Source: Bacillus sp. (in: firmicutes) (GTDB lineage: Bacteria > Bacillota > Bacilli > Bacillales > Bacillaceae_J). From it: a stretch of 64,000 nt of DNA. How positions within the stretch are numbered: position 1 is the stretch's first letter; the number at the start of each line of letters is the position of its first letter. The DNA is taken from assembly GCA_012842745.1 (NCBI GenBank), contig DUSF01000004.1, positions 12,818 through 76,817 on the forward strand, read 5' to 3'. Positions 9,994 through 33,934 of this stretch are shown in pieces. The notes under the pieces are model-generated. The model did no database searches. It was not told the DNA's origin and saw only the letters and a program-made list of their open reading frames with translations. The position numbers and the translations under genes are program-made.

Positions 9994-10007
9994 CTCTATA
10001 ACCCCCA

Positions 10008-12057: not shown

Positions 12058-12115
12058 AAATGAAAATACTTTAGGATAGGCGCAAAACTTTACTGATACC
12101 ATATAAAACTCTTAT

Positions 12116-12154
12116 AAAAAAAGAAGGCAATGATGTAACGATTGCCTTCTTTTT
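12116..12154. terminator. Bidirectional terminator between convergent genes
   Basis: GAAGGCAAT-9 nt loop-ATTGCCTTC, flanked by A7 and T5. Confidence 0.8.
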
Positions 12155-12162
12155 CCAACCAT

Positions 12163-12585: not shown

Positions 12586-12721
12586 GGAAACACTCCTAAT
12601 TTATACATTTTTTCTGCGCATTAAACAACTATATCACAATTAGCCTACTTTATCAAAAACAACGCCATCACATCACTATTTTATGCAAATAAATGATTTT
12701 TTATTTAACAAACAAAAGCCC

Positions 12722-12752
12722 AAAAAATAAAGCAGCCCAATGCCTTGGGCTA
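12722..12752 (-). terminator. Rho-independent terminator of the aminotransferase gene
   Basis: The minus strand reads AGCCCAA-GGCA-TTGGGCT followed by a T-rich tract. It overlaps the stop codon. Confidence 0.7.
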
Positions 12753-14428: not shown

Positions 14429-14471
14429 GGGTGACACTCCCTAGATTTATATAGTTTTAAGTCCAATTATA

Positions 14472-15008: not shown

Positions 15009-15070
15009 CTAAACAACAGCTCCTTTTAATATAAGATACTATTAGCATACTCTGAATGGCTGTCCAGCAA

Positions 15071-15086
15071 AATGAACTTTATCACA
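15071..15086 (-). promoter_or_regulatory. Possible degenerate Crp/Fnr-type box upstream of the hemerythrin-like gene
   Basis: The minus strand reads TGTGATAAAGTTCATT (TGTGA-N6-TCAtt). Its centre is 32 bp from the centre of a TATGCT -10 candidate (rc of 15044-15049). Confidence 0.3.
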
Positions 15087-15111
15087 TTTTTCCGCAATAA
15101 ACTTTTTTCTG

Positions 15112-16518
15112 TTACCCCTCAAAAACAGGCAACTTTATAAAAACCGTTGTCCCTTCTCCCACTTCACTTTCAATAATAAAATCTCCTTCATGAAGCTGGA
15201 TAATTTTTTGAACAATTGCGATTCCTAACCCCGTACCACCATATTGACGGGTTCTTGCTTTATCAATTCTAAAAAAGCGCTCGCCAATGCGATACAAATC
15301 CTCTTTCGGTATACCGATGCCATTGTCTTTAATGGCGATTGTACACATATTGCCTTTCGATTTTTCTAAAGAAACACGTATAAATGAGTTTTCAGGTGAA
15401 TAACGGATTGCATTTTCAACAATATTTTGTACAACCTGCTCCATTCGGTCTTGATCCCCCATAATGATAATTTCGGGGTCAAGCTCTTTCTCTAAAACTA
15501 CCTTTTTCTCATGCAAAAATGGATCGAATTTTTCCAGTGCTTCTTCGATTAATTGTGCTAATGCTAGTGGCTGTTTGTCCATTGGCAAAGATTTGCCCTC
15601 CAATTGTGCTAAGTCCAGCAAATCACGGACTAACCGCTGCATTCTACCTGCTTCACGATGAATCAATTGTAAATATTTACCTGCATCTTCCTTTTTTGAT
15701 ACTGTTCCATCTAAAATGGCCTCGCTATAGCCTTTTATATAACTGATTGGCGTCCGTAGCTCATGGGATACATTCCCTAAAAATTCCTTGCGCCGCTCAT
15801 CTTCTTCTTGGATTGCTTGAGACATTTGATTAAAAGCCACACCAAGTCTGCCAATTTCATCATTGGATTGAACATAGACTTTTTCACTGAAATCGCCTTT
15901 TGACATTTTATAAGCAACGCGCTCCATTTCATTTAATGGTGTTGTTAATTTTTTGACGATTTGTTTCCCGACAAGTAGGGCTATTAAGCTTAGGATAAGA
16001 GTAATAATCATAATAATAAGGCTCGCTTCTTCAAACACTTCATTTACTGAAGCTAGTGGTACGTATAAATATAAAATTCCTCTCAGCCGCTTTTCTTCTA
16101 AAAGAGGGACAATGACACCCATTATATTCCGATCAAATTGTTTTTCGTAACCAATTTTTGTAATACTTTCACCATTTATGAGTTGTTCCCGTTCTTCAGC
16201 ACCAATTAATGACTGATGATTTACATCAAACGGTAAACATGCACTTAATTCTTTTGGGTCATTTACGATGAACACTTCAGATTGGGAGATTTTATTATAC
16301 CATTGCACTTTTTCCTGCAATTCGGGTGTTAGCACCCCACCTTTATATTCTTTTGCTAAATTGAAGCCTTCTTTCCTGAGATTTGCTTCGACATCATCGA
16401 CATAAATTTTTTTATACAAATAATGGGTCATTCCGTAGGAAACAGTAATTCCAATTAACATTACAATACTTACGATAATCCATAGCTTTTGTCCTAATGA
16501 TAGCGTGTGTTTTTTCAT
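15112..16518 (-). CDS. Sensor histidine kinase (extracytoplasmic sensor, HAMP, HisKA, HATPase)
   Basis: H-box SHELRTPISYIKGY, N-box NAIRYSP, G1 DNGIGIP, G2 GGTGLGIAIV. Two TM helices bracket a ~130-aa outside loop. Confidence 0.9.
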   Translation of the reverse strand: MKKHTLSLGQKLWIIVSIVMLIGITVSYGMTHYLYKKIYVDDVEANLRKEGFNLAKEYKGGVLTPELQEKVQWYNKISQSEVFIVNDPKELSACLPFDVNHQSLIGAEEREQLINGESITKIGYEKQFDRNIMGVIVPLLEEKRLRGILYLYVPLASVNEVFEEASLIIMIITLILSLIALLVGKQIVKKLTTPLNEMERVAYKMSKGDFSEKVYVQSNDEIGRLGVAFNQMSQAIQEEDERRKEFLGNVSHELRTPISYIKGYSEAILDGTVSKKEDAGKYLQLIHREAGRMQRLVRDLLDLAQLEGKSLPMDKQPLALAQLIEEALEKFDPFLHEKKVVLEKELDPEIIIMGDQDRMEQVVQNIVENAIRYSPENSFIRVSLEKSKGNMCTIAIKDNGIGIPKEDLYRIGERFFRIDKARTRQYGGTGLGIAIVQKIIQLHEGDFIIESEVGEGTTVFIKLPVFEG

Positions 16519-17198
16519 TATAAGACCTCAAATTTATAGCCAATTCCCCAAACCGTTTGAATTAAATTGCCATGTTCTTTAAGCTTTAGGCGCAATGTTT
16601 TAATATGCGTGTCGACTGTTCGTACACCACCAATGTAATCAAAGCCCCAAACATTTTCCAATAATTGTTCGCGACTAAGCGCCTGCCCGTTGTGACGGCA
16701 GAAAAATAGCAACAGTTCATATTCCTTCAATGTTAAGTTAATCAATTCGCCACCAAGATAAACTTGCCTGCCCTTTAGATTTAAAACAATCGGACCGAAT
16801 GCTAATTGTTCCTCATCTTCACGCACGATCGGATTTGCACGCCTTAGGACAGCATCCACTCTCGCAATTAATTCATTTGGACTGAACGGTTTTACAACAT
16901 AATCGTCTGCACCAAGCTTCAAACCATAAACGCGGTCCCATTCATCACCTCTAGCCGTTAAAAAAATAATCGGCACTGATGAATCCTCTCTTACTTTCAT
17001 ACATAATGTAAGCCCATCAACCTTCGGCATCATCACATCGATGATCAGAAGGTCAAAAGAATTAGCTTTTAATAAATCCAAAGCAACTTCTCCATCTTCT
17101 GCTTCAACACAATGGAATCCCTCTTTTTCAAGGTACATACGCACAAGTTGCCTCATATCAGCTTCATCATCAACAATTAGTACTTTTCCTTTGTTCAT
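16518..17198 (-). CDS. OmpR/PhoB-family response regulator
   Basis: Receiver domain (VLIVDDE...LLIIDVMMPKVDG...KPF) plus a winged-helix output (TVDTHIKTLRLKL...TVWGIGYKF). It overlaps the HK start by 1 nt. Confidence 0.9.
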   Translation of the reverse strand: MNKGKVLIVDDEADMRQLVRMYLEKEGFHCVEAEDGEVALDLLKANSFDLLIIDVMMPKVDGLTLCMKVREDSSVPIIFLTARGDEWDRVYGLKLGADDYVVKPFSPNELIARVDAVLRRANPIVREDEEQLAFGPIVLNLKGRQVYLGGELINLTLKEYELLLFFCRHNGQALSREQLLENVWGFDYIGGVRTVDTHIKTLRLKLKEHGNLIQTVWGIGYKFEVL

Positions 17199-18179: not shown

Positions 18180-18373
18180 TTTATTACCCCCGTATTTTGT
18201 TTCTACTCCTAGTATAATAGGTAGGTGTGAAAAAGTAATGAACTCAACTTTTTAAAAAATTTCTTAAAACTTTTCTATTATTATATAGATTCCTCACAAA
18301 TACTTCAAAAATATCTATTATCCTGTAGATGGTCTAAAAAATATTATAGAATTTTTGGAGGTTGAAGTTATTT

Positions 18374-19045
18374 ATGAAAAAACTATTAATGATTTTAATG
18401 GCTGTTGGATTAACCTCAGGCATCCTAGCTGGTTGTGGAACAGGGGCAAAAGAAAGTCAAGGCGGGACTTCTCCTAATAATGAAGCTGAAGTAGAAAATG
18501 GACAAGCGGCGCAAACTGAAAATACAGCAACAGATAATGGAGCAGAAAAGAAAGATATTGCACAAGTTACTGCAACACCTACAGAACCAGGTGAAGGCGA
18601 AACGTGTTCAATGTGTGATATGGAGGTTTATCACCATGACCATGAAATGGGGAAATTCACAGGCCAAGTTGTAACAGCTGATGGCAAACACTTATTTACA
18701 GATGATGTGGGCTGTTTATTGAATCAAGTCCGTATTCTTGAAGAGAAGCCACAAGGCGCTTGGGTTCGTGATTACAATACTTTAGAGTGGGTGCCAGTAG
18801 GTGATGCAACACCAGTAAGAGCAAGCATTGAAACTCCAATGAAAATGGGATTTGCATTATTTGGAACAAAAGAGGCTGCAGACAAATATGTTGCCGAAAA
18901 CCCAATGTTAGCTCCGGTTGTCACTTCAATGGATGATGTTGATAACATTGCTTTAGAACGTCGTAAGGTTAAGTTGGCGAAAATGAAAGAAGCAGAAGAA
19001 AAAGCAAAACCAGCGGAGAATATGGATGAGCATATGAACCACTAA
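18374..19045 (+). CDS. NosL-like copper-binding lipoprotein paralog with long linker and Met/His-rich tail
   Basis: Lipobox ILAGCG. A ~55-aa low-complexity linker, then a NosL-type core (CSMCDMEV...DDVGCLLNQ...WVRDYNTLEWVP) and a C-terminal ENMDEHMNH. Start moved to ATG 18374. Confidence 0.7.
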   Translation: MKKLLMILMAVGLTSGILAGCGTGAKESQGGTSPNNEAEVENGQAAQTENTATDNGAEKKDIAQVTATPTEPGEGETCSMCDMEVYHHDHEMGKFTGQVVTADGKHLFTDDVGCLLNQVRILEEKPQGAWVRDYNTLEWVPVGDATPVRASIETPMKMGFALFGTKEAADKYVAENPMLAPVVTSMDDVDNIALERRKVKLAKMKEAEEKAKPAENMDEHMNH

Positions 19046-19101: not shown

Positions 19102-19845
19102 CTACGCTGTTTCTTCCGCCTTCACTAACGAAAAAAACACTTCCTCCAATGTCGTTTTAGCGTTACCGTCATCTTTTCCCTTCGTCAACGCTTCTACTGT
19201 ATCGTTGACTAACAACCTACCGCTATTCATAAACGCCACCCTGTCTGCCAGTTCTTCGACATCTGCTAAAATATGTGATGAAAACAAGATTGTTGTCCCT
19301 TTCTGTTTTTCTCCTTTTATAATATTTTTAAATTCCCGTACCCAATATGGATCAAGGCCATTGGTTGGCTCGTCTAAAATAAGCAAAGGAGCTTCAGGCA
19401 GCAAGCTTTGCGCTAAAGCTAATCTTTGCTGCATTCCTTTTGAATAGTTGCGGACTCTTTTATCTTTGTCTTTTGAAAGTCCAACTCTATCGAGCAGTAA
19501 CTCAACTCTAGATTGTGGAACGTTCGATAATTGTGCAAAAAAGCTTAAAACCTCGTACCCGCTTAATACTTTTGGGAATACCATCGCATCAGGCATATAG
19601 GAAAAAAGCGACTTATACATTGCTGCATTTGAGCTCATTGTGATACCTGATAACTTAACCGCTCCAGATGTCGGTTTTATATTGCCAATCATCATTTGGA
19701 TAACCGTACTTTTTCCAGCGCCATTGCCGCCGCAAAGTGCAAAGCATTCACCTTGGTAAATTTCAAAATTAATATGCTCAATCCGGTTAGTAGCATTATA
19801 AATTTTACTTAAGTCTTTGACTTCAACTATTCGCTTACGCTCCAT
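19102..19845 (-). CDS. nosF: ABC transporter ATP-binding protein NosF
   Basis: Walker A GGNGAGKST, signature YSKGMQQR, Walker B LLILDEP. It is the last gene of the nosD-L-Y-F operon and overlaps nosY by 11 nt. Confidence 0.8.
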   Translation of the reverse strand: MERKRIVEVKDLSKIYNATNRIEHINFEIYQGECFALCGGNGAGKSTVIQMMIGNIKPTSGAVKLSGITMSSNAAMYKSLFSYMPDAMVFPKVLSGYEVLSFFAQLSNVPQSRVELLLDRVGLSKDKDKRVRNYSKGMQQRLALAQSLLPEAPLLILDEPTNGLDPYWVREFKNIIKGEKQKGTTILFSSHILADVEELADRVAFMNSGRLLVNDTVEALTKGKDDGNAKTTLEEVFFSLVKAEETA

Positions 19846-20665
19846 GACTAATCCCTCGTTTTAGCATTCTATTTGAAATAAAGATTGGTATGAAAACCCA
19901 CAGAATCGCCGTTATGGCAAAGACAATTTGACCAATATTGCCTTCGCTCCAAACAGTCAAATCATACAAATGTGGTCCAAATATGGAGCCGCTATCCATT
20001 GAAATGATTGTCCAAACACGAACTAATTCGACTGGATTTAGGAGAATCGAAGCTGTGAACATTCCTAGGATTGCTTGTTTGCTTATAACCATTGCCAAGC
20101 CCATAACTATAAATTCATAAAATAAAACTGACACCGCCCACAAAATTAAACTCATACCTAAGGCTTGAAAACGAGTTGCAGACAGTACACCAATTAGCAT
20201 TGCTAAACCGAGAAATAACATCATTAGTAACATTGTAAATCCATAAAATAACAAGAAAAATTGCAACGAAATACTTGCCTTGCTTATAAAAAGAATCAAT
20301 CCTGCTGCACCATAACCGAACGTAACGACAGCAAACAAAGTTAATAATAAGCCAATAAATTTACCTACTAATATTCGGGAAGTCGGTATTGGATACGTAA
20401 ATAACAATGTTAAACTTCCGTCTTCTTTATCACCAGCTATTGATGTGCTGCCAATTAGCAATGTTAAAAGCGGCACTAGAAAGAGCGACAAATTTAATAA
20501 ACTTGCTGCCATTCGGTTAAAGCCATTAAAGCCTGCTTCTTCAGCACTCCCGCCAAACAAAACAATCGTAATCGCTAGCACCGTATATAGAATCGTAAAG
20601 CTGAATACCCATTTGCTTCTGGAAATTACCTTTAATTCCTGTCTAGCTATTAGAAACATTTTCAA
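19835..20665 (-). CDS. nosY: ABC-2-type permease NosY
   Basis: A ~6-TM hydrophobic protein between nosL and nosF, of the typical NosY size. Confidence 0.75.
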   Translation of the reverse strand: MKMFLIARQELKVISRSKWVFSFTILYTVLAITIVLFGGSAEEAGFNGFNRMAASLLNLSLFLVPLLTLLIGSTSIAGDKEDGSLTLLFTYPIPTSRILVGKFIGLLLTLFAVVTFGYGAAGLILFISKASISLQFFLLFYGFTMLLMMLFLGLAMLIGVLSATRFQALGMSLILWAVSVLFYEFIVMGLAMVISKQAILGMFTASILLNPVELVRVWTIISMDSGSIFGPHLYDLTVWSEGNIGQIVFAITAILWVFIPIFISNRMLKRGISHGA

Positions 20666-20682: not shown

Positions 20683-21156
20683 TTAGTGTGCTTGCATAAC
20701 CCAATCTACTTTTTCCAAGCCATTATAGTCTAGCACCTCACCTTTTCCCTCTTGTTCAATATACTCCTCGGCTTGTTCTTTTGTGGAAAATGAAACTACC
20801 CCATAGGCCATTGGCGTCCAAAATTCTGGATGATAAGCATGATAGGCTTGTTCAAACGGCACCCATTTCATCGTTTCGTAATCTCTTACATATGTTGCGC
20901 CAATATCTTTATTCTTTCCTTCACCTTCTAAATATTTAATCATGCATCCGATATCATCATACATATGAACCGTTCCATCACGTTCAATTAATTGTGTTGC
21001 AAAATCAGTATGGGCAATTGACATATTGCATACTTCACAGGCATCAATGTCTGGATTTACCTCCCTCGGCTCAAAAGCGGTTTTGTTGCCACACGCACTC
21101 ATTATTAAAACAAGTACTACTACTATCATTGAATAGAATCCATTTCGAATTTTCAT
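20683..21156 (-). CDS. nosL: Copper chaperone lipoprotein NosL
   Basis: Lipobox LIMSACG. NosL core CEVCNMSI...DDIGCMIKYL...YVRDYETMKWVP. Its start overlaps the nosD stop (TAATG). Confidence 0.85.
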   Translation of the reverse strand: MKIRNGFYSMIVVVLVLIMSACGNKTAFEPREVNPDIDACEVCNMSIAHTDFATQLIERDGTVHMYDDIGCMIKYLEGEGKNKDIGATYVRDYETMKWVPFEQAYHAYHPEFWTPMAYGVVSFSTKEQAEEYIEQEGKGEVLDYNGLEKVDWVMQAH

Positions 21157-22526
21157 TATGAAACCCTCCCGCGATAAAAAATATAAACTGCTAAACTAAT
21201 CATCATTATTCCAATGAAAGCTGCCAGCCAATTGCGCTGTACGATATGAGCTTCTTGTAAATCAGCTTTATATTGTACCGGTTGCACGTAGGGAAAGCGG
21301 TCCATCCCTTTATCACCAGAAAGGGATGGAAATATCTTTTCAATTGATGACCAAAGTTTAATCGTTGGACTTTCAAAAAAGAATTGTAGTGTTGGGTGTT
21401 CTTCTACTAATTTATCAAACAGCTTTCCTGACTCATAAGGAATATCGCCAATCCCATCTCCATCTAAATCCATCCCGCTATAGTCATCCCAATAGTTACC
21501 TTGGCCATTTAAATCCATTGGCTCTACACTAGTAAAAATTTTCGTTTGAACTATATTTCCGATAAAATTATTGTTGACCATTGTGTTCCGTTCATTTTTA
21601 TCCTTTAAATCTAAGCCGACATAATTACCCGCAAATATATTGCCTTCAATTTTACAATCACGAGCATCTTGTAAGCTTAAACCTGTATTATTAAAAGTCA
21701 CACGATTATTAATTAATTCAATCTTGTCAGAGTCAAAGATAAGTACGCCATGACCACGGTAATCTAAATTTTCGGTAATAGTATTTCCTGTTATTTGAAA
21801 ATCCTCAGCATCCATAATCATGAGACCAGTAATATTTTTCGTTGATACATTCTCGGTCAACAAGCCTTTTTTGGCATACATAACATGGTATCCGTATCTC
21901 GACCCTTCAACATAGTTTTCTTTTAACGTACTATCCTTTGCAAAATCAAAATAAATACCGTCCTGCACTTGTTGAATGTGATTTCCTTGAAGCAAAGTAT
22001 CTTCTGCATAAAATAAATGAACACCATTACCTCTAGCAGAAAAATGTCCATCATAACCGGTAATTTCATTATTTACTAGTCGATTTTGCTGTCCTTTGTG
22101 CACATAAATTCCGTAATGGACTTCTTTAATAATATTGTTTTCGATAAGATTATTGGAGGACTCTACCCATATTCCGGCTATGGTATCATTTTTGCCGCTT
22201 TTTTCAATTATAAAATTGTCAATTGTTACGTTGTCCGCTTTTACTTCAATGACATGACCTTTTCCATCCCCAGCAATAATGGCATCTTCCTCACCTTTTA
22301 ATTGAATCGATTTATCAATAATAAGCTTGCCATTATACTGTCCTTTTTCAACGAAAATGATTGCACCTTCGTCTGCATCATTGATTGCCTCTTGTATACT
22401 TGATCCTGGTTTTACAGTTATTTGTGCTCTTTCCACGTTAGATGTCAGCTTCTCCGCTTTAACATTAGGATTAATTACAATTACAAGTCCAATTATTGAG
22501 AAAAATAATAATACAACTCTTAGCAT
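21156..22526 (-). CDS. nosD: NosD, parallel beta-helix copper-site maturation protein, with C-terminal TM anchor
   Basis: Many N-x-I/V-x-x-N beta-helix repeats (NNIIKE, NNEITG, GNHIQQ, ENYVEG, GNTITEN, NNRVTFN, GNIFAGN, NNNFIGN). It has a signal peptide and a C-terminal helix WLAAFIGIMMISLAVYIFY. Start moved to Met7. Confidence 0.85.
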   Translation of the reverse strand: MLRVVLLFFSIIGLVIVINPNVKAEKLTSNVERAQITVKPGSSIQEAINDADEGAIIFVEKGQYNGKLIIDKSIQLKGEEDAIIAGDGKGHVIEVKADNVTIDNFIIEKSGKNDTIAGIWVESSNNLIENNIIKEVHYGIYVHKGQQNRLVNNEITGYDGHFSARGNGVHLFYAEDTLLQGNHIQQVQDGIYFDFAKDSTLKENYVEGSRYGYHVMYAKKGLLTENVSTKNITGLMIMDAEDFQITGNTITENLDYRGHGVLIFDSDKIELINNRVTFNNTGLSLQDARDCKIEGNIFAGNYVGLDLKDKNERNTMVNNNFIGNIVQTKIFTSVEPMDLNGQGNYWDDYSGMDLDGDGIGDIPYESGKLFDKLVEEHPTLQFFFESPTIKLWSSIEKIFPSLSGDKGMDRFPYVQPVQYKADLQEAHIVQRNWLAAFIGIMMISLAVYIFYRGRVS

Positions 22527-22640
22527 AAATTTTATCACCACCAATCCTCTACTACTTTACATCATATCTAGTAATTGTGAAGAAACAGAAAAGAAAATTT
22601 GAACAAAAAAAGAACTCCCCTACATTGGTTTGTTCTTCTT

Positions 22641-24413: not shown

Positions 24414-25541
24414 TTACTTTATAGTAATTGCAACCATCGTTACATCATCATCAAATCGGCCAGCCGTAGTAGTTGTTTTCCTTAACACGGTTTCTAGCAA
24501 TTGAGTGCTATCTAAATCTGTTACGCTGACAACTAACTCCTTCAGCTTTTCAATATTACTAGAAGTATTCAAGCCAAATGAATCTGTTAAACCATCAGTG
24601 TATAGGAAAAGTTGACTCCTTCCTTGAATCGGAATCGTCCCCGTTTCGATGACAAGCTCTGGCAACAAGCCAATCGGTGGACAGCCAACATCTAAATAAT
24701 CCACTTTTCCACCTGCATGAATAAGAAACCCAGGTGGGTGGCCTGCAGATGCATACTCCATGAATTTTTCCTTAACATCAATTAAAATGTAAATGGCAGT
24801 AAAAAAGTAGGAATGTTCCATTTCACTGTTTCGGTACAAGAGCCGCATATGCTCATTTAATTCCATAAACAAATTTTCCGGTTTCATAAGGGTTGTAATA
24901 ATCCCCCGAAGCAATGAGCGAATGGACATACCAACCAAGGACGATGCAACACCATGACCCATAATATCTAACACAATCACACCGTACTTATTTTCATCTA
25001 TCTTATACCAAGCATACATGTCCCCAGCTAATTCAGCACTAGGTAAATATGCTCCATCAATATGAATTGTTTCATTTTTTATCGATTTACTAAGTACACT
25101 TTTTTGTAACTGCCGTGCTAATTCCAAGTCCGATGCTAATTTGCGCTCCGCTTCTTTTATTTTTGTAATATCACTTATAATAGCACAGTAGCTAATAGGC
25201 ATTTCATTTGAATCCTTAATCGTAGCAATCGTAGTTCGCTGGTAGTAGAGGTCACCGTTTTTTCTCCGATTTATAAATTCACCCTGCCACTGTCCACTTT
25301 TTTCAAGTGATTCCCATATTCCTTTATAAAATTCTAACGGATGTTTGCCTGATTTTAAAATTCTTGGGTTATTACCAATCGCTTCCTCAGCTTGATAGCC
25401 AGTAATTTTTTCGAACGACTCATTAACAAGTTGAATCGTTCCACTTAAATCTGTTACAAAAATACCCTCTAGTGAAAATTTAAATACTTTTGCTGCGAGC
25501 TGCTCTTCTACTATCTTCGAGAGACTAGTCATCTTGATCAC
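24414..25541 (-). CDS. PAS-domain PP2C (SpoIIE-type) serine phosphatase, RsbP/RsbU-like
   Basis: N-terminal PAS (GIFVTDLSGTIQLVNESFEKITGY...DITKIKEAE). PP2C motifs AGDMY...VLDIMGHGVASS...LYTDGL...DDVT. It overlaps the upstream STAS gene by 17 nt (8 nt if ATG 25532 is the start). Confidence 0.85.
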   Translation of the reverse strand: MIKMTSLSKIVEEQLAAKVFKFSLEGIFVTDLSGTIQLVNESFEKITGYQAEEAIGNNPRILKSGKHPLEFYKGIWESLEKSGQWQGEFINRRKNGDLYYQRTTIATIKDSNEMPISYCAIISDITKIKEAERKLASDLELARQLQKSVLSKSIKNETIHIDGAYLPSAELAGDMYAWYKIDENKYGVIVLDIMGHGVASSLVGMSIRSLLRGIITTLMKPENLFMELNEHMRLLYRNSEMEHSYFFTAIYILIDVKEKFMEYASAGHPPGFLIHAGGKVDYLDVGCPPIGLLPELVIETGTIPIQGRSQLFLYTDGLTDSFGLNTSSNIEKLKELVVSVTDLDSTQLLETVLRKTTTTAGRFDDDVTMVAITIK

Positions 25542-25869
25542 GCTTCAAGTATCGCAAGCCTTCTTCTTTTGTATCAAAAATTTTAATAAAGGTGCCGAAC
25601 TTGACAATATTAAATATTTCTCTAACAGATTGCTGTGTTGCCACAACAACTAGTTCCTTTTGATTTTTTCTAGCAGTCATTACTGAATCAGCGATTACAC
25701 CTAGTGCCCCACTGTTTAAGTATTGAACTCCTTTTAGATGCAATAATAATCTGCCAGAATCTGAATGAATCAAGTCTTTCATCGCATCTCTAAAGCTAGC
25801 AACGTTTTTTAATGTTACATCCTCCTCCCAATTTAATAGAATTGCTTGTTTACTGGAAGTAAAGATCAT
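25525..25869 (-). CDS. STAS-domain anti-sigma-antagonist-like protein (Ser at the phospho-site)
   Basis: 114 aa. LKGVQYLNSGALGVI aligns with SpoIIAA/RsbV ...MDS(S/T)GLGV. Ser53 falls at the phosphorylatable position. Confidence 0.8.
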   Translation of the reverse strand: MIFTSSKQAILLNWEEDVTLKNVASFRDAMKDLIHSDSGRLLLHLKGVQYLNSGALGVIADSVMTARKNQKELVVVATQQSVREIFNIVKFGTFIKIFDTKEEGLRYLKRDQDD

Positions 25870-26302
25870 AAAAACCCGCCTCCTCTGGCTGTATAAAATT
25901 ATTCATATATTTTTGCATAACTAGTTTAACATACCCACCGTTTTCCTCTAAATGGACATGATCCATCAAATTTACGATTAGTTGTAAACCTCTTCCTCTA
26001 AGACTGTGATTCACCTCATTGGCAAATAAAGAAATATTATACTTTTTCCCTTTATGTTTTGTGAAAATGGTAAGAATGTTCTGTTGACTTTTATCCCAAC
26101 ATGTAAAGAAACCCGATTGATTCGTATGTTGGCAATATTCGTAGGCGTTCATACATGCCTCTTCTGTTACTAAACGTAAAAATAATCTGTCATAATGCAA
26201 AAATCCCATATGAGTAGCAATTTTATCAGTAACATCCATCGCTTGGAAAATATCATCTGCTGTTCTGACTTTCAGGCAATGCTTATCGTCATATAATTTC
26301 AT
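25850..26302 (-). CDS. RsbW/SpoIIAB-like anti-sigma-type serine kinase homolog (ATP-lid motifs look degenerate)
   Basis: 150 aa. N-box-like EEACMNAYEY and G2-like LRGRGLQLI. Where DxGxG (G1) is expected the sequence reads HKGKK. It overlaps the STAS gene by 20 nt. Confidence 0.6.
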   Translation of the reverse strand: MKLYDDKHCLKVRTADDIFQAMDVTDKIATHMGFLHYDRLFLRLVTEEACMNAYEYCQHTNQSGFFTCWDKSQQNILTIFTKHKGKKYNISLFANEVNHSLRGRGLQLIVNLMDHVHLEENGGYVKLVMQKYMNNFIQPEEAGFYDLYFQ

Positions 26303-26428
26303 GATTTTATTCTCCTTACTGAATATTTATTTGTCAACATTCTTAACTATATATTTCAAGGAAGAGACGGAAAACCCTCCCTTCCTCCTTAAATTTCATA
26401 AAAAGGACAAAACTTTTCGAAAATAGTT

Positions 26429-27976
26429 TTACATTTTGAATTTTCCAGCAAGTTGCGCAAGATTTTCGGCCATTTTCGCCAAATCATTAGCTGTTGCTGC
26501 TGTTTGTTGAACTCCAGCTGCTGTTTCCTGGGATACAGCAGCAATGCTTTCAACAGCTTGCAACACCTCACGTGATTGCGCATTTTGCTCCTCACTTGCT
26601 GCGGCGATTTCAGCTATCTTGCCAGCAGCTATTTTTACTAGATTGATAATTTCCTTGAACGCTTCGCCCGCATTCTTAGCTTTTTCATTTCCTACTTGTA
26701 CAGCATCAACTGAGGCATCCGTATTTGCTTGAATGGATTCAATCAATTCAGAAATTTCCTTCGTTGCCTTACTACTTCGCTCTGCTAATTTTCGAACCTC
26801 ATCAGCAACGACAGCAAACCCTTTACCAGCCTCACCTGCACGTGCTGCTTCTATGGCTGCATTTAATGCCAACAAGTTGGTTTGTTCCGCAATATCATCA
26901 ATAACCTCTACAATTTCACCGATTTGAACTGACTTACCTGATAAATCCGAAATTTTATTGCTAATGTCATTCATCCCGCGCAATGTATCCTTAATAACCT
27001 CATTGCCCTTTTCAGCAGATTGGACCATTGTTTCGGATGAGTTGGATGTTTCCTCCGCATTTTTTGCAACGGCAAGAATCGCATTTACCATTTCCTTGAC
27101 CATTTCCGAAGCTACACCAGCATTATTAGCCTGCATTTGGCTACCTGTTGCAATTTGTTCCGTACTAGCAGAAATTTCTTCTGTACTCGCCGCTAAATTA
27201 TTCGCACTTCCTAATACATCTCCGATTAGTCCCCGCAAAGATGATGTCATATCATTAATTGCGACTGCCAACTCACCAACTTCATCCTTTGATTTTATAA
27301 CGACTTTTTCACCTGACAAGTCGCCAGCTGCCACCTTTTTCAAACGATGAACAATTTCTAAAATTGGAGCCGAAATTTTATGAGATAGAATGAACGCAAT
27401 AATTATTCCAATCGCTACAGAAATCACGCTAATAATGATTGTAATGAGGATAATTCTATTACCTGTTTTGACTATTTGATTTTTAAGTGTCTCCATTGCT
27501 TTGACACTATTGGCAACTTCACCTTCAAAATTAGACGTTAATTCATCCGAGAGTACTCTTACATCTACAGCCTTATTTACAGCTGCCTCTGGACTTTCTT
27601 TATATAAGGAAAATAATCCATAAATAGCTTCATCCCATTGAGCGTTTTTCCCAAAAATCGCCTTTTGTGCATCAGTTATATTTAGACTTGCCAGCTTCTC
27701 CTGGGTTCCTTTATTTTGCTGGGTTAATTGATCAAATTGTGTATAATAAGCTTCATCCCCTGTTAATAAATACGCTCGAAGGATTGCTGTCCGGTTTGCG
27801 ATGCTATAATTTAAATCTCTCCAATAAGTAAGCTGCTGCAATTCGTTTCCAAGAACTTCTTCCACTTTATTTTTAAAATTACTTGTTTGGGTATAATTAT
27901 AAATAGACATAATTAATAACAATGTTAGAATAATGGCGAAGCTTCCTAAAATTTTAAATCGTAAACTTCTCATCAT
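26429..27976 (-). CDS. Methyl-accepting chemotaxis protein (4HB sensor, HAMP, signalling domain)
   Basis: [38 protein letters not shown], two TM helices and a HAMP domain ([17 protein letters not shown]...[13 protein letters not shown]). Its start is 16 nt after the cheA stop. Confidence 0.9.
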
Positions 27977-27992
27977 AAGTCCCCCTCATAAT

Positions 27993-30584
27993 TTAATTGA
28001 TTCGTTCATACTTACTTTCTTCCATTACATTTGAAATTGTCTTAAGCTCTGCAACATCCAAAATAAAGTCTAAATCAAGTAAGATCACTAATCGTTCCCC
28101 TAAATTGCTTATACCACGAATAAACTTCTCTGCAATTTGGCTTGTATTGTCATCTGGCGGTGACTCGATTGTATCAGTACCTACCTTTAATACTTGGGTT
28201 ACTTGGTCAACTAATAAACCAATTAATTCATTTCCAAACTCTACAACAATGACCCTTGATTTCCTTGTTAATTCATGGTGATTAATCCCAAACCGTTCTC
28301 GCAAATCCATCACTGGCATTAATTTGCCGCGAAGATTAATCATACCGATTACTGAATATGGTGCATTCATAACTTTCGTTACCATTGGTACAGTGATAAT
28401 ATCCTTAACACGTCCAATTTCAATGCCGTATTCCTCAGAGCCAAGCTTAAATGTGGCTAATTGAATAGTTTCTTCTATCTGTCTCGTTTCCTTATCATCC
28501 ATAGCTTCATTCATTGCATTTTTAGACCCTTCTTCCCGAACAATCGCCCCCGTATCAAGAATTATCGCAACATTTCCATCACCCATAATCGTTGCTCCAG
28601 CAATATATTTCGGCGTTCCGATATATTTACCAAGCGGTTTAATCACAATTTCTTGATTACCTAATGTTTTATCGACTACTAAGCCAACACGCTTATCAGC
28701 AAGCCCTATGACAATGACAAAAATCCGCTTTGGATCGACAAGGTATTCTTCACTAACGCCTAAACGTCTATGCATTCTTACTAATGGGAGCACACGGTCG
28801 CGGACGACACCCACTTCTTGATTTTTTATTGTCTTAATCTCTTTTTTATGAAGGCGGACAATCTCCTGTACATTCACAAGAGGTATTGCAAATTGTTTAT
28901 TTCCTAATCTAACAAGAAGCGAACGGATAATCGCTAATGTTAATGGCAACTTAATTGTAAAAGTTGTGCCCTTGCCAAGCTCTGAGTCAATATTAACAAT
29001 GCCATTTAGTTTTTCGATATGACTGCGGACAATATCCATGCCGACACCGCGACCGGAAAGATCAGTAACCGTTCCTGCTGTTGAAACACCTGATCGGAAT
29101 ATTAAGAAGATTAAGTCTTTATCTGTCATCCGCTCGGCTTCTTCCTCGGTTACAAGCCCTTTTTTAATAGCAGAGGCTTTTATTTTTTTCGGGTCAATAC
29201 CGCCCCCATTGTCTGAGATGGTAATAACAATATGGTTTTCCTCATGTGAAGCTTTTAACAAAACCTGACCTTTCTTTGGCTTCCCAACAGCTTCACGCTC
29301 ATTAGGCCCCTCTATACCATGATCAATCGCATTGCGGAGCAAATGGATAATCGGATCGCCAATTTCCTCAATCAGATTACGGTCAAGCTCCGTTTCTTTT
29401 CCTTCAATGATAAACTCAATTTCCTTGTTCGCCTTTTGCGATAAATCTCTTACCATCCGCGGAAAACGATTAAATAGTTGTTCAATTGGCAGCATCCTTG
29501 TTTTCATCATTCCTTCTTGCAGTTCACTAATAACTTGACCTAGATGGTTGCCAACCTCAACGAACGACTCGACATCTTCATCATTGGCATAGCGATCTTC
29601 AAGACGCTTACGAACTTCTGCTAATCGGGTTTGGTCAATGACAAGTTCCCCAACTAGATTCATTAAATGCTCCAATCTTTCAACATCGACTCGAACAGTT
29701 TGTTTTACTTTCATGTCAACTTTTGGAATGTTAAGAGCGGTTTCTTTTTGCTTAACTTCACTAAACTCCATTTTGCTTCCAGTTGTAAATTTACCTAGAT
29801 TGCTTTTTGTTAGTTTTGTTAAATTGATGGAACGAATATCTGAAATGCTATTAATAATTTGAAAGGCTTCCTGTTCTGTTGCATTAGTGACTAAACAACA
29901 GACTACATTGCCTTCAAATTTAGCATCATCTTCGATGATTTCCTGTGATGGAAAAGTAGCGATAATCTCACCGATTTCTTTTAAATTGTTTTGAATTAAA
30001 AACGCTCTTACAGATTTCAACATCGCATCTTGCCTTAAGCTGACATAAGCTGAAATGACTTGATACCCTGCTTCAAGTGCCTTTTCAACCATCTCTTTTT
30101 GAGTATCATCAAAAATCACTTCGGGATAGACAACATTATCATTTACATTCGAAATTTCTTTTTGTTTAGCGGTTTCCGTTTCCTCAACATTAACGGCTGC
30201 ATCTTTTATTTTTTCTAGCTTTTCAATTAATGGTTTAATCTTAATTTTCTCGATTGTTCTATTCAAAATAGCTTCTTTCATAACTTTAATAAAATCAATC
30301 GCCTCAAAAATCGCGTTAATAATATCTGTATTAACCTTAAGCTGGTGATTGCGAATGAAATCAAAGATGTTTTCGACTTTATGGGTCAGCTCTTTCATTT
30401 TGTCAAAGCCCATTGCTGCTGATGATCCTTTTAATGTATGAGCAGCCCTGAAAATGCGCTGGATTGTATCTTCGTTTTCTCCATCATGTTCTAAATTCAA
30501 TACCTCTTCATCCAATATTTGCAGCTGTTCATCAACCTCATCTAAAAACACACCAAGATAAGCTGATACATCGAATTCACTCAT
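27993..30584 (-). CDS. cheA: CheA histidine kinase with an extra C-terminal CheW-like domain; no receiver domain
   Basis: Hpt FRAAHTLKGSSAAMGF (His49), P3 VRVDVERLEHLMNLVGELVI, N-box HLLRNAIDHGIE, G1 DNGGGID, G2 GRGVGMD and P5. A second CheW-like domain follows (LATFKLGSEEYGIEIGRVKDI...INLRGKLMPVMDLRERFG). Confidence 0.9.
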   Translation of the reverse strand: MSEFDVSAYLGVFLDEVDEQLQILDEEVLNLEHDGENEDTIQRIFRAAHTLKGSSAAMGFDKMKELTHKVENIFDFIRNHQLKVNTDIINAIFEAIDFIKVMKEAILNRTIEKIKIKPLIEKLEKIKDAAVNVEETETAKQKEISNVNDNVVYPEVIFDDTQKEMVEKALEAGYQVISAYVSLRQDAMLKSVRAFLIQNNLKEIGEIIATFPSQEIIEDDAKFEGNVVCCLVTNATEQEAFQIINSISDIRSINLTKLTKSNLGKFTTGSKMEFSEVKQKETALNIPKVDMKVKQTVRVDVERLEHLMNLVGELVIDQTRLAEVRKRLEDRYANDEDVESFVEVGNHLGQVISELQEGMMKTRMLPIEQLFNRFPRMVRDLSQKANKEIEFIIEGKETELDRNLIEEIGDPIIHLLRNAIDHGIEGPNEREAVGKPKKGQVLLKASHEENHIVITISDNGGGIDPKKIKASAIKKGLVTEEEAERMTDKDLIFLIFRSGVSTAGTVTDLSGRGVGMDIVRSHIEKLNGIVNIDSELGKGTTFTIKLPLTLAIIRSLLVRLGNKQFAIPLVNVQEIVRLHKKEIKTIKNQEVGVVRDRVLPLVRMHRRLGVSEEYLVDPKRIFVIVIGLADKRVGLVVDKTLGNQEIVIKPLGKYIGTPKYIAGATIMGDGNVAIILDTGAIVREEGSKNAMNEAMDDKETRQIEETIQLATFKLGSEEYGIEIGRVKDIITVPMVTKVMNAPYSVIGMINLRGKLMPVMDLRERFGINHHELTRKSRVIVVEFGNELIGLLVDQVTQVLKVGTDTIESPPDDNTSQIAEKFIRGISNLGERLVILLDLDFILDVAELKTISNVMEESKYERIN

Positions 30585-31047
30585 CTAAAGCGACCCCCTT
30601 TTCAAATTCAGGGTATAGCACTTTATGTTTATTTAAAATCCCAATTAATTTGTCTCCTACTTTCGCAAAACCTTTAAAGCAATCTTTTTCAATTGAGTTA
30701 AAGATATCAAGAGTTGGTTCTAAATTTGCCTCTTCGACATAGGTAACCATCACTACCTCATCAACAATTAACCCGATATCCTCTCCGTCATTTTCAATAA
30801 TGACAATCCGTGTTTTTTTAGTAAACGGAGCAGGCTTAATATGATATCGCTTGCGAAGATGAACGACAGGAATAATCTTGCCTCGTAAATTAATCATTCC
30901 AGAAATATAATCCTTAATGCCAGGAACTCCCGTAATCGTTTGTACACGAATAATTTCTACTACTTCTTCAATGGCAAGAGCACAAAGCTGATGATTAATA
31001 GAAAAAACAACATATTGACCAGCTTGCGAGCTAACAGCTGTATCCAT
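30577..31047 (-). CDS. cheW: CheW coupling protein
   Basis: 156 aa with YVVFSINHQLCALAIEEVVEI...INLRGKIIPVVHLRKRY. It overlaps the cheA start by 8 nt. Confidence 0.9.
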   Translation of the reverse strand: MDTAVSSQAGQYVVFSINHQLCALAIEEVVEIIRVQTITGVPGIKDYISGMINLRGKIIPVVHLRKRYHIKPAPFTKKTRIVIIENDGEDIGLIVDEVVMVTYVEEANLEPTLDIFNSIEKDCFKGFAKVGDKLIGILNKHKVLYPEFEKGVALDE

Positions 31048-31203
31048 GCTATCACCTCCAAATATAGTTCGCCATTTTTCAACAAAACGCCCTATAATTT
31101 AGTATAAAATGTAAATTCATGCATAACCATTGCCTAGCATTCCTATTTTTATCTGTTTTCTTCACTTATATTTAGCAAAAGTAGGAAGGGTTTCCTATTT
31201 ACA

Positions 31204-31242
31204 ACAAAAATCGACTTCTGCTTAAAATGCCAGAAGTCGATT
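31204..31242 (-). terminator. Rho-independent terminator after the LuxR-type gene
   Basis: The minus strand reads AATCGACTTCTG-10 nt loop-CAGAAGTCGATT (12-bp stem) followed by TTTTTG. Confidence 0.8.
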
Positions 31243-31247
31243 TCATT

Positions 31248-32933
31248 TCAGACTTTATTATTCAATTCATAAAACGCTACAATAATTTGGGTTCGATCAT
31301 GAAATCCCAATTTATTCAAAATATTTGAAATATGGTTTTTGACTGTGTGTGTACTAATATACAATTCACCCCCAATTTCTTTATTGCTCATCCCTTTAAC
31401 AATGAGCTTTACTACATCTAACTCTCTTGCTGTCAAATGATCAACTAACGACTTGGAATGAAACATCTCCTTATTTGGTACTCGTGTGATTATTTTTTTA
31501 TATTGCAATTGTTTATGCCAAGGTTTAAGAGCTATTCCACAAATGACTGCTAAGCTCTTCATATATACTTCTGCTTCCTTAAGATCATTTGGATAGCGCA
31601 AAGAAACGATTATAATTGCAAAAAGCATTTCATCAATATAAATTGGGCATTCAAGAATGACAGTATCATATTTTTCGATTACTCGTGCTCGGTGAAATGC
31701 CCCCATTGATTCTATATTAAAGTATTGATCACGTTGATTATTAGCATGATCGTAGATTGTTTTATCGTCTACCTTTTTCGTTATATTTAAATATTCATAG
31801 TCTCCATATCTTGTAATAATCGTTGTAAAGTGGCTTGGTATAAGGGAATTCGTTATATTAGCAATCATTAATAGCATATCTTGAAGGTTTTCGATTGTTG
31901 TTATCGACTTAAACGTTCCCATCAGTACCGATAATTTCATTAAGTGCAAATCCATATGGGATTCAACTGAAGCTTTTTTTATTCCCAATTCAATGATAGA
32001 TGCTAAAATCTGAATTCTTTTGAGAACGCTTTGGTCTTTATTGCTTTCTGTTGTATTCCCACCAAAAATAAAACCTATCACCTCTTCATTTCTAATAACT
32101 GGATAACAAAAAAAGGAACCTGTTTTAACCCCATTTTTCATTAAAAATGATAATCTTGGATCAAAACCAATTTTACCTAAATACTCAAACCTTCGACTTG
32201 CTGCAATGTCTTCAAAAAATGTTCCGCTAATGACAAAGTTTGATCCGACAATACTTTCCTCATTTGCTCCTATATATGATTTGATTTCAACAGTACCCGC
32301 TATTAACGAAGCAATTCCTACATAATCAAAATGATGCTGTTTTTTCAATATTTCCAGCATTTCATAGTATTGGATGTTTGCTGTTTTTATAGTCTTTACA
32401 ATTTGCTCTAATTCAAGGAAATGTTCATCTTCATATCCGCTTTTTATCAACTCAATACAAACAGTTGCCATCATATACAACTGTTCCTTTTTTTGTTGAA
32501 GTTGACTGTTTGAAAGGATTGGTAGTTGAAATATAGAATCATTTCGCTCGATATTATGTATAGCCGAGCCCATACCCGTTTTTATATAGTCTGAAATGCC
32601 TTCTTCAATATAAGACCAACACCAAATATAGCTTTTTATTTTATCATCGATAATAATAGGCACCAATAAGGCCTTTACGCCATAATGGCTTGGGCATTCT
32701 ATTGGGTTAATGACAACACAAGTAGTGATGGAGTTATATTTGGCAATTATTTTTTTTAATTGATTTAAGAAAGGCAAATCAGCTTGATAAACAAGAAATT
32801 CAACAAATGAAGAAATTCCTGAAATATTTGTTATCGGATTGCCTTCATTGTCTGTCATATAGAGGGTCATCTTCATATTTTCGGCATATATATCTTGAAT
32901 ATTTTGGAGCAGTATTTTCGTATTACTTTTCAT
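31248..32933 (-). CDS. LuxR/GerE-type HTH regulator with ~490-aa N-terminal sensor region and no receiver domain
   Basis: C-terminal LTARELDVVKLIVKGMSNKEIGGELYISTHTVKNHISNILNKLG. The N-terminal region looks like GAF/PocR-type ligand-binding folds, but that assignment is uncertain. Confidence 0.75.
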   Translation of the reverse strand: MKSNTKILLQNIQDIYAENMKMTLYMTDNEGNPITNISGISSFVEFLVYQADLPFLNQLKKIIAKYNSITTCVVINPIECPSHYGVKALLVPIIIDDKIKSYIWCWSYIEEGISDYIKTGMGSAIHNIERNDSIFQLPILSNSQLQQKKEQLYMMATVCIELIKSGYEDEHFLELEQIVKTIKTANIQYYEMLEILKKQHHFDYVGIASLIAGTVEIKSYIGANEESIVGSNFVISGTFFEDIAASRRFEYLGKIGFDPRLSFLMKNGVKTGSFFCYPVIRNEEVIGFIFGGNTTESNKDQSVLKRIQILASIIELGIKKASVESHMDLHLMKLSVLMGTFKSITTIENLQDMLLMIANITNSLIPSHFTTIITRYGDYEYLNITKKVDDKTIYDHANNQRDQYFNIESMGAFHRARVIEKYDTVILECPIYIDEMLFAIIIVSLRYPNDLKEAEVYMKSLAVICGIALKPWHKQLQYKKIITRVPNKEMFHSKSLVDHLTARELDVVKLIVKGMSNKEIGGELYISTHTVKNHISNILNKLGFHDRTQIIVAFYELNNKV

Positions 32934-33120
32934 AATCTTCCCCCCTTTGGCAAAATTGGTAAAACTATATTTATACTACCAAAAATTTTGTTTGGAAAGG
33001 CGATGAAATTATGGAATCACTATGATAATTACAATAGTAAAAGTTAAAACCCTGTACTGCATCCAGAAAATAGAGGCCGACCCTTTTGTTGAGCCTGCCC
33101 CTATTTATTTATTTTTAAGT

Positions 33121-33462
33121 TTATACTACTTTCCTTCTTGTTTTGGCAAATATTTTTTGTACATATTTTTGAGCGTATTGCTCCTTGGAAAACACTTGTA
33201 CAATTGAATCAAACTGAACCATCTCAAATATCTTCTTCATTGATGCTTGATTATTTATAATAACAAGTTCCTTATCCATCCCTTGAGCTTCTTTGGCTGC
33301 TTTTGCAATAATACCTAATGCTTGTTCATTCATATACGATACGTTTTCAAGATTTAGAATGATACCATCTATATTCATTACAAGAAGTTTCTCGATTGAA
33401 GCCTTGAAGTTTTCGATGTTGTCGAGCGTAAGATTATTATTCCATACAAGTGTTTGAATCAA
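33121..33462 (-). CDS. STAS-domain protein with Glu at the phospho-site position
   Basis: 113 aa. LENVSYMNEQALGII aligns with the STAS phospho-loop, and Glu46 replaces the Ser. TTG start with AAGGGAG 8 nt upstream. Confidence 0.75.
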   Translation of the reverse strand: MIQTLVWNNNLTLDNIENFKASIEKLLVMNIDGIILNLENVSYMNEQALGIIAKAAKEAQGMDKELVIINNQASMKKIFEMVQFDSIVQVFSKEQYAQKYVQKIFAKTRRKVV

Positions 33463-33664: not shown

Positions 33665-33800
33665 TATGTTTCTTCGGGGTCGGGTGAAATTCCCAATCGG
33701 CGGTGATGTAGTAATGACTAATAAGCCCGCGAGCCTTATATGGCAGGAGCTGGTGTGAATCCAGGGCCGACAGTTATAGTCTGGATGGGAGAAGAAAATG
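33665..33800 (+). promoter_or_regulatory. FMN riboswitch (RFN element)
   Basis: TTCTTCGGGGTCGGGTGAAATTCCCAATCGGCGGT...AGCCCGCGAGC...GGTGTGAATCC...GCCGACAGTTATAGTCTGGATGGGAGAAGA matches the RFN consensus almost position by position. It lies directly upstream of ribD. Confidence 0.95.
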
Positions 33801-33903: not shown

Positions 33904-33934
33904 CACGTACTTCTAGATGAAAAAAGGTGATAGG

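Follow-up and report, generated by a model that had tools for sequence, protein, structure and literature searches.

Gene content and layout of the island

The window analysed here (the whole 64-kb stretch of contig DUSF01000004.1 from a Bacillus sp., to which all coordinates without a locus number refer) contains at positions 24414-33462 an island of eight genes, every one of them on the minus strand. The island encodes a chemosensory array, consisting of CheW, CheA and a methyl-accepting chemotaxis protein (MCP), together with the proteins of a partner switch and a LuxR-type regulator. The switch proteins are a GHKL protein resembling RsbW and SpoIIAB (RsbW-like protein), a PAS-PP2C phosphatase, and two STAS proteins that differ in the residue at the phosphorylation site, STAS(Ser) and STAS(Glu). 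An earlier note on this DNA, made from the sequence alone, had proposed that the output of the array runs through the switch to the regulator. Our analysis tentatively points to a conserved three-module signalling island of Bacillales, in which the array would provide input to a LuxR-centred partner switch. The genes and signals of the island are as follows, in the direction of transcription:

33121-33462, minus strand: STAS(Glu), 113 amino acids (aa), Pfam STAS 46 bits; a transcription unit of its own, with a hairpin downstream
31248-32933, minus strand: LuxR-type regulator, 561 aa, Pfam GerE 73.5 bits and PocR 33.5 bits, weak GAF_2
31205-31244, minus strand: intrinsic terminator 3' of the LuxR gene, 14-bp stem and UUUUUGUUG, -18.9 kcal/mol, z = -5.1
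30577-31047, minus strand: CheW, 156 aa, Pfam CheW 112 bits
27993-30584, minus strand: CheA, 863 aa, Pfam Hpt, P2, H-kinase_dim, HATPase_c and two CheW domains
26429-27976, minus strand: MCP, 515 aa, Pfam 4HB_MCP, HAMP and MCPsignal (159 bits)
25850-26302, minus strand: RsbW/SpoIIAB-like GHKL protein, 150 aa, Pfam HATPase_c_2 36.1 bits (cut-off 27.4)
25525-25869, minus strand: STAS(Ser), 114 aa, Pfam STAS 47 bits
24414-25541, minus strand: PAS-PP2C (SpoIIE-type) Ser phosphatase, 375 aa, Pfam SpoIIE 136 bits and PAS_9 57 bits
24355-24412, minus strand: terminator hairpin 3' of the PP2C gene, -24.6 kcal/mol, z = -4.1, followed by a U-run; common to the convergent gene kapB

Gene coordinates were taken from the open reading frames (ORFs) of the window, the junctions were recomputed from these coordinates, and domains were assigned by Pfam and NCBIfam profile searches, which agreed with the assignments in the earlier note for all eight proteins. 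The ORF coordinates likewise bore out its description of eight co-directional minus-strand genes, and every overlap and gap that it had listed was reproduced to the nucleotide: cheW and cheA overlap by 8 nucleotides (nt), gaps of 16 and 126 nt lie on either side of mcp, towards cheA and the RsbW-like gene, respectively, while the RsbW-like gene overlaps the STAS(Ser) gene by 20 nt and the latter overlaps the PP2C gene by 17 nt. The terminator reported after the LuxR gene was also recovered, with its 14-bp stem and U-run; its loop is longer than 8 nt, and it was recognised by reading the sequence and by folding. Folding gave another hairpin with a U-run 3' of the STAS(Glu) gene (z = -3.6). The mcp gene is followed by no more than a weak hairpin; between this and the RsbW-like gene lies a TTGACA-17-GAGAAT site.

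To find receivers, every stop-to-stop frame of the window was compared by phmmer with three CheY/Spo0F queries. None was detected within the island, and the sole receiver in the window is that of an OmpR-type regulator (16518-17198), which adjoins its own histidine kinase (phmmer, Pfam). No CheB, CheR, CheD or CheY is encoded in the island (ORFs, Pfam). A phmmer search with SigB revealed no sigma factor in the window; a weak match at 13931-14437 was rejected as such, being an Lrp/AsnC regulator according to Pfam. The two methods are thus in agreement with the earlier observation that the block has neither a receiver nor a sigma factor and that the OmpR-type protein at 16518 is the lone receiver of the window.

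Proteins of the array, the switch and the regulator

CheA has the domain order P1(Hpt)-P2-P3-P4-P5-P5, the extra C-terminal CheW domain occupying residues 709-844 (Pfam), and the residues of its His, N, G1 and G2 boxes (H49, N418, D458/G460/G462 and G511-G515, respectively) are invariant in 14 homologs. The Hpt His, dimerisation domain, GHKL ATP site and CheW-like P5 expected of the kinase in a core signalling unit are all present, as are CheW as a protein of its own and the signalling domain of an MCP; absent is a receiver output encoded with the kinase, which would make the pathway complete. In a comparison with the PDB, CheA proteins of Thermotoga maritima (348 bits) and Escherichia coli (329 bits) scored nearly equally. 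Mean pairwise identity within the receiver-less CheA clade is 60% for P1, 49% for P2, 63% for P3, 73% for P4, 63% for the first P5 and 43% for the second, against 21-31% for the linkers; the difference between P2 and the linkers argues that P2 still has a partner.

The MCP is a predicted transmembrane receptor with a 4HB sensor, of the 38-heptad (38H) class. This number follows from insertions and deletions in the arms of the signalling hairpin. First, relative to E. coli Tsr (36H) there are two symmetric insertions of 7 aa, i.e., 7 aa more per arm. Second, the alignment with PcaY has two gaps of 7 aa, i.e., 7 aa fewer per arm. Finally, each arm is 21 aa (three heptads) shorter than in a 417-aa Parageobacillus receptor taken to be 44H. 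Residues ~262-275 and ~460-467 include EE/EQ pairs that resemble methylation sites, in an island that has no CheR or CheB, which hints at cross-talk with housekeeping adaptation enzymes.

A CheA with an extra CheW domain and 38H receptors are the hallmarks of class F5 (PMC10782961, PMC10746217), represented by Che1 of Azospirillum brasilense and Che3 of Rhodospirillum centenum, and both are found here. F5 clusters are ordered A-W…B-R and contain CheY, and many F5 CheA proteins carry a C-terminal receiver, whereas the island reads W-A-M and lacks CheY, CheB and CheR. Some F1 CheA proteins also carry two CheW domains. By its hallmarks the array looks F5-like, with both F5 and F1 remaining candidates for its phylogenetic class. 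Receptors of the 38H and 44H classes have been reported in separate arrays (PMC6759762).

The phosphorylation sites of the STAS proteins were located by alignment to S58 of SpoIIAA and S56 of RsbV, which confirmed the assignment of Glu to the upstream protein and Ser to the downstream one. The downstream protein (25525-25869) has the single STAS domain and phosphorylatable Ser that characterise anti-sigma-factor antagonists; its Glu paralog (33121-33462) does not have such a Ser. The motif of the downstream protein is Y-[LIM]-N-S-x-A-L-G, and its Ser is invariant in all copies aligned from the loci described below, including loci without an RsbW-like gene or PP2C. At the upstream site Glu is found in the window, in Schinkia azotoformans and in a metagenome-assembled genome (MAG, locus L012), and Ser in Calidifontibacillus, where a penicillin-binding-protein gene occupies the place of the LuxR gene. 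STAS(Glu) is confined to the Schinkia lineage and, judged from this residue, is a predicted phosphomimetic paralog.

The RsbW-like protein scores 28.5 bits with the NCBIfam model of RsbW, for which the cut-off is 145. Its AlphaFold2 (AF2) model (pLDDT 80.5) has as its best match B. subtilis RsbW in the RsbV/RsbW complex (6m37, target-normalised TM-score 0.85), followed by SpoIIAB, UsfX and SiaB. The E..N of the N-box and the GRGL motif of the G2 box are invariant. Of the features that define RsbW and SpoIIAB the protein has the GHKL fold; a complete ATP site, an accompanying sigma-factor gene and an equivalog-level score are lacking.

The translation of the phosphatase gene contains the metal-binding Asp motifs GDMYAW, DIMGHG, YTDGL and DDDVT, and with these and its SpoIIE domain the protein is a predicted Ser phosphatase. 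Its PAS domain is LOV-like, with NCBIfam matches to the PAS domains of NifL, YtvA and DibA. Residues ~56-65 read GNNPRILKSG, with Pro at the position of the photoactive Cys; our guess is a flavin or redox sensor, as opposed to one for light.

In the LuxR-type protein, a GerE helix-turn-helix is preceded by a PocR/PAS-like domain and two GAF-like domains. In fold, its AF2 model (pLDDT 70) best matches PAS-GAF-PHY and tandem-GAF modules, and no receiver was detected in the protein by Pfam, phmmer or fold matches. In place of the receiver of a LuxR/FixJ/NarL response regulator, its N-terminus carries PocR and GAF-like domains next to the GerE domain typical of that family. The modelled architecture is that of a sensor-rich, one-component-like regulator.

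Conservation across Bacillales

The CheA of the window is identical to that of a MAG labelled 'Bacillus sp.' and shares 78% identity with a CheA of S. azotoformans, which has the same eight genes in the same context, with rib genes on one side and kapB, a peptidyl-prolyl isomerase gene and nosD on the other; no receiver is encoded within 10 kb on either side. A scan of the CheA family, with one genome per species, yielded 80 loci, all from Bacillales except for one contig labelled as an archaeal MAG. The loci were annotated by phmmer, with the window proteins, CheY, Spo0F and SigB as queries, and the counts given here cover the 65 loci with a double-CheW CheA, a STAS gene being counted when co-directional and within 7.5 kb. 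Such a STAS gene is present in 32 of the 65 loci, a large LuxR homolog in 27, an RsbW-like gene in 25 and a PP2C gene in 22. The full switch (STAS, RsbW-like protein and PP2C) was found in 19 loci, 17 of which have no CheY, CheB or large receiver protein. STAS(Ser) is the most conserved accessory gene of the system.

The gene order varies between lineages: W-A-M-RsbW-like-STAS-PP2C in Schinkia, Brevibacillus, Aneurinibacillus and Pseudobacillus, W-A-M-STAS-PP2C-RsbW-like in Ureibacillus and Lysinibacillus, and LuxR-M-W-A-STAS-RsbW-like-PP2C in Paenibacillus; Calidifontibacillus completes the list of genera with the island. In Aneurinibacillus soli the six-gene core lies in an unrelated neighbourhood, with a gap of 10 nt between mcp and the RsbW-like gene. 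In a neighbour-joining tree of CheA the STAS-bearing clusters fall in three separate clades. As the order differs between lineages and between CheA clades, the association has outlasted rearrangement. With an estimated handful of STAS genes per Bacillales genome, chance would come nowhere near the linkage seen in 32 of 65 loci. This answers the doubt, raised in the earlier note, that the adjacency of che and switch genes might be accidental.

A search outward from the RsbW-like protein revealed 13 loci, in Parageobacillus thermoglucosidasius and 12 relatives, in which the switch occurs with the LuxR gene and no cheA or cheW lies within 10 kb. All 13 read LuxR (PocR…GerE, ~555 aa)-RsbW-like-STAS-PAS-PAS-PP2C. 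Compared with their orthologs in the window, the RsbW-like protein, STAS and PP2C show 50, 52 and 44% identity, and the LuxR proteins 25% over their full length. In another locus (L089) the same LuxR-switch module has cheW-cheA-mcp between the LuxR and RsbW-like genes, as in the window. Since the module stands alone without che genes, the switch and LuxR appear to form a self-contained core, into which the che triad was inserted as a cassette. The che-less operon is the best evidence at hand, of a comparative kind, for joint action of the LuxR protein and the sigma-less switch. As assessed from the gene content of the fetched loci, LuxR homologs flank che and/or switch genes in the 27 loci counted above and in all 13 che-less modules. 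Each of the three pairwise links, array with switch, switch with LuxR and array with LuxR, is co-conserved.

Several other features of these loci were noted. Che-less modules are followed, 1-4 kb downstream, by a conserved receptor of 417 aa (L084:13381-14634; L087, L091-L100). It was considered as a hidden partner of the module and found unsupported, having 21 aa more per arm than the MCP of the window and being read as 44H. An apparent fusion of the RsbW-like protein with STAS (P0143, L085:10001-10720) was left aside as a probable product of frameshifts, since this MAG contig has cheA, mcp and luxR each in pieces. Genes for resistance-nodulation-division (RND) efflux, encoding an AcrB-type pump and a HlyD-type adaptor, adjoin che genes in the unrelated genomes of A. 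soli (L003:16994-21401) and S. azotoformans (L008:5350-9740). A link between efflux and che genes was rejected as probable coincidence, the neighbours in Calidifontibacillus oryziterrae (L059) being a molybdopterin oxidoreductase and an EAL protein.

In the window itself, a flavin mononucleotide (FMN) riboswitch (Rfam RF00050, 109.5 bits) lies at 33666-33800 on the plus strand, 5' of a divergent ribD-ribE-ribBA operon starting at 33917; the riboswitch and the operon form the upstream boundary of the island. Nitrous-oxide reductase accessory genes are located on the other side: NosD (21156-22544), probable ABC components (19102-20665) and a NosL-like protein (18362-19045). The same nos gene set lies beside the island in S. 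azotoformans, which fits a denitrifying host. The minus-strand genes at 12750-17198 encode an aminotransferase, the Lrp/AsnC regulator, a hemerythrin-domain protein and the OmpR/HisKA pair, none of them related to the island.

Possible routes from the array to gene control

Parts of the island have counterparts in known systems. The closest in gene content are the F7 "stage 1" clusters (PMC7184735) of Shewanella oneidensis (Che1), Vibrio cholerae and Pseudomonas aeruginosa, whose che genes are accompanied by two STAS genes, a Ser phosphatase and two CheW-like elements and which are thought to link the array to gene expression via a partner switch; in S. oneidensis, the Che1-CrsR/CrsA system links the che cluster to RpoS. 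The island shares with them the STAS and Ser phosphatase genes next to che genes. However, F7 stage-1 clusters have CheY, CheR, CheD and CheB, all absent here, and their receptors are Aer2-like and McpA-like, cognate to 36H, whereas the island encodes a 38H 4HB receptor and a double-CheW CheA. In F7 the receiver domain is on the phosphatase/anti-sigma protein CrsR, while the island has a PAS-PP2C and, as a protein of its own, an RsbW-like one whose ATP site is atypical. Finally, the target of the F7/Che1 system is a sigma factor, RpoS, in whose place the island has the LuxR-type regulator.

Other similarities concern single components. CheS of Sinorhizobium meliloti and Agrobacterium fabrum is, like STAS(Ser), a protein of a single STAS domain whose gene lies in a che operon; in S. 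meliloti this STAS-only protein forms complexes with CheA and changes how CheA deals with CheY (PMC12654446). CheS, however, works in chemotaxis with a CheY1/CheY2 phosphate sink, and its operon has no RsbW-like, PP2C or LuxR gene. The SiaABCD and HptB-HsbR-HsbA systems of P. aeruginosa resemble the switch of the island in that a PP2C, together with proteins of the GHKL kinase-like and STAS types, controls an effector other than a sigma factor. Their outputs, on the other hand, are diguanylate cyclases, FlgM or RpoS, and their input often comes via a receiver domain; no LuxR-type target or receptor-array module was reported for them in the literature searched. The RsbU/RsbV/RsbW-sigma-B and SpoIIE/SpoIIAA/SpoIIAB-sigma-F switches of B. 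subtilis have the same three folds and the same position of the STAS phospho-Ser, but they act on a sigma factor, which the island lacks, and their STAS motif has D-S where that of the island has N-S.

The earlier note did not recognise the wiring of the island as described. This holds for the receiver-less, LuxR-linked version of Bacillales, as no che and partner-switch system of this kind was found in the literature searched (full text). It does not hold for the elements, since che clusters with STAS and PP2C genes, binding of STAS to CheA, and partner switches without sigma factors are already known.

Taken together, the gene content and its conservation suggest the following scheme, in which we infer all contacts between proteins, the direction in which the signal flows and what accepts the phosphate of CheA. 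The first module would be the PocR-GAF-GAF-HTH LuxR regulator with its dedicated switch (RsbW-like protein, STAS(Ser) and PAS-PP2C), self-contained as in the che-less loci. The second would be the cheW-cheA(P5-P5)-mcp(38H) cassette between the LuxR and switch genes, which probably builds an F5-like array apart from the 44H/F1 motility array. The third, limited to the Schinkia lineage, would be the second STAS paralog, locked by Glu in a phosphomimetic state. The PAS-PP2C and a kinase, nominally the RsbW-like protein, would set the phosphorylation state of STAS(Ser); unphosphorylated STAS would bind the RsbW-like protein, and this binding would release or change the activity of LuxR, on which either the RsbW-like protein or STAS would act. 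The LuxR regulator would thus stand in for the sigma factor. The receptor array would feed ligand information to the switch, most likely by docking of STAS on CheA, or alternatively via a receiver encoded elsewhere. A STAS-CheA coupling is plausible because CheS forms a complex with CheA and because F7 stage-1 and Che1-CrsR/CrsA systems place STAS and phosphatase genes in che clusters. We propose this scheme tentatively, being slightly more doubtful of it than convinced. Of the chain suggested in the earlier note, from the array through the switch to a GerE-type regulator, the association of che, switch and LuxR genes stands, in at least three CheA clades, as does the tie between switch and LuxR, which the che-less operon provides. 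The remaining steps are weakened by several observations, which weigh against the scheme and are set out below.

First, the catalytic apparatus of CheA and that of the RsbW-like protein both fit poorly. With His49, the ATP boxes and P2 all kept in CheA, a receiver substrate is to be expected, and none is encoded in the island; the simplest and likely phospho-acceptor of CheA would be a receiver encoded elsewhere. In GHKL proteins the Asp of the G1 box binds adenine. The RsbW-like protein has no such Asp, the residue being His in the window and Gln, Glu or Thr in related proteins, and its ATP lid is ~10 residues shorter than in the sigma-B and sigma-F switches, from which it also differs in the loss of the Asp. 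Owing to this non-canonical G1 box it is doubtful, on sequence grounds, that the protein acts as the kinase of STAS, and it is possibly a pseudokinase.

Second, coupling of the modules is modular rather than obligatory, as every pair of modules occurs without the third. LuxR and che genes are found without STAS in L034, L042 and L043, and che and switch genes without LuxR in L003, L009 and L011; other parts of those genomes may encode the partners that are missing. The same genomes that carry the island also hold paralogous cheW-cheA(double CheW)-mcp triads without a switch, in S. azotoformans (L008) and C. oryziterrae (L059, ~9970-14670), with no STAS, RsbW-like, PP2C or LuxR gene nearby. The receptor of the L059 triad is closer to the MCP of the window (E = 2e-212) than is that of the orthologous cluster L005 (E = 2e-181). 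Moreover, because the switch and LuxR stand alone in the che-less loci, the che triad could be just a cassette that is co-expressed or regulated, and LuxR could be a mere local activator of the operon.

Third, receivers do occur in sister clusters. The closest orthologous clusters have neither a receiver nor a sigma factor, and to this extent the absence observed in the island extends to the conserved version of the cluster; it does not extend to the sister clades, which have CheB, once also CheY, or REC-GGDEF-EAL proteins. One sister clade (L014, L017, L021, L086) has a ~1240-aa receptor, CheR and CheB, followed by RsbW-like-STAS(-PP2C)-LuxR. These receptors are of unusual architecture, with up to six stretches matching MCPsignal and long coiled coils (e.g., L086:4305-8033). 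The Rossellomorea cluster L047 adds a canonical-looking CheY (E = 7e-47 to B. subtilis CheY) and a PP2C without a sensor. In clusters of the Cohnella type everything is replaced by REC-GGDEF-EAL proteins, and in two Cohnella loci (L052, L061) LuxR is paired with CheA-MCP-CheW-CheY. The receiver-less state looks real and conserved, as one variant of a modular family rather than its founding principle.

The strongest alternative to an array that drives the switch is that the island encodes an auxiliary chemotaxis array, whose CheA phosphorylates the housekeeping CheY/CheB of the fla/che operon, with motility as the output and with LuxR and the switch controlling or accompanying its expression. 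The conservation of P2 within the receiver-less clade and the intact His49 and ATP site of CheA would be explained in this way, as would the methylation-like pairs in the MCP of an island devoid of CheR and CheB, the occurrence of switch and LuxR without che genes, and the switch-less paralogous triads. The CheY of L047 suggests that this CheA family can use a canonical CheY, and an upstream position behind its own terminator, as that of the LuxR gene, is common among local regulators. However, many genomes have che and switch genes only 3-20 nt apart in a common operon, which fits a single pathway better than it does a regulator with its target. The sister clusters with CheR and CheB generally lack CheY and yet keep STAS, the RsbW-like protein and LuxR, which points to an output other than CheY, and other clades of the CheA family use REC-GGDEF-EAL outputs, unrelated to motility. 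The separation of 38H and 44H receptors in different arrays (PMC6759762) also argues against this alternative. On balance we regard an auxiliary chemotaxis array as a serious possibility, though on the unlikely side.

Two further arrangements are improbable, in our opinion. One is a stricter form of the array-to-switch scheme, with an output entirely free of receivers: STAS would replace CheY, being either sequestered at and released from CheA (by P2 or the extra P5) or having the phosphorylation state of its Ser set directly by CheA, the RsbW-like pseudokinase would serve as an "anti-LuxR" protein, and the switch would end on the PocR-GAF-GAF-LuxR regulator. The other, to which we would give equally little credence, is a flow in the reverse direction, in which STAS, with its phosphorylation state set by the possibly redox-sensing PAS-PP2C, binds and tunes CheA, whose output goes to a receiver elsewhere. 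Besides the precedent of CheS, which binds CheA and alters the way it handles CheY (PMC12654446), action of a STAS protein on a chemoreceptor has been proposed for Campylobacterota (PMC9239204), and the STAS gene is the accessory gene most tightly associated with cheA, directly following it in Paenibacillus and in L020. Reverse flow leaves unexplained, however, why RsbW-like, STAS and PP2C genes lie beside LuxR in the 13 cheA-less loci, and what the role of the RsbW-like protein would be. That the switch regulates sigma-B or another sigma factor encoded elsewhere, with the che genes as unrelated neighbours, is hardly credible: the switch proteins do share superfamilies with RsbU, RsbV and RsbW, but che and STAS genes occur together in 32 of 65 loci, in several genera and with reordered genes, the RsbW-like protein has no G1 Asp and, at 28.5 bits, stays far below the RsbW cut-off of 145, and no sigma-factor gene adjoins the switch genes in any locus inspected, the only SigB-like matches lying several kb away (L011, L019, L079).

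The known output of chemosensory arrays is through receiver domains, and the classical end-point of a partner switch is a sigma factor. The island joins an array to a partner switch without either of these canonical end-points, adds a sensor-rich LuxR regulator, and is widespread in soil Bacillales. The natural series of loci with and without the che cassette (Parageobacillus versus L089 and Schinkia), or with CheB, CheR and CheY, provides a comparative set, which makes both the phosphorylation target of CheA and the sequestration target of the RsbW-like protein tractable by experiment. If the array does drive the switch, the island would be a Gram-positive counterpart of the poorly understood link between chemoreception and global gene expression in F7 stage-1 and CrsR-CrsA systems, and it may represent an uncharacterised route from chemical sensing to gene control.

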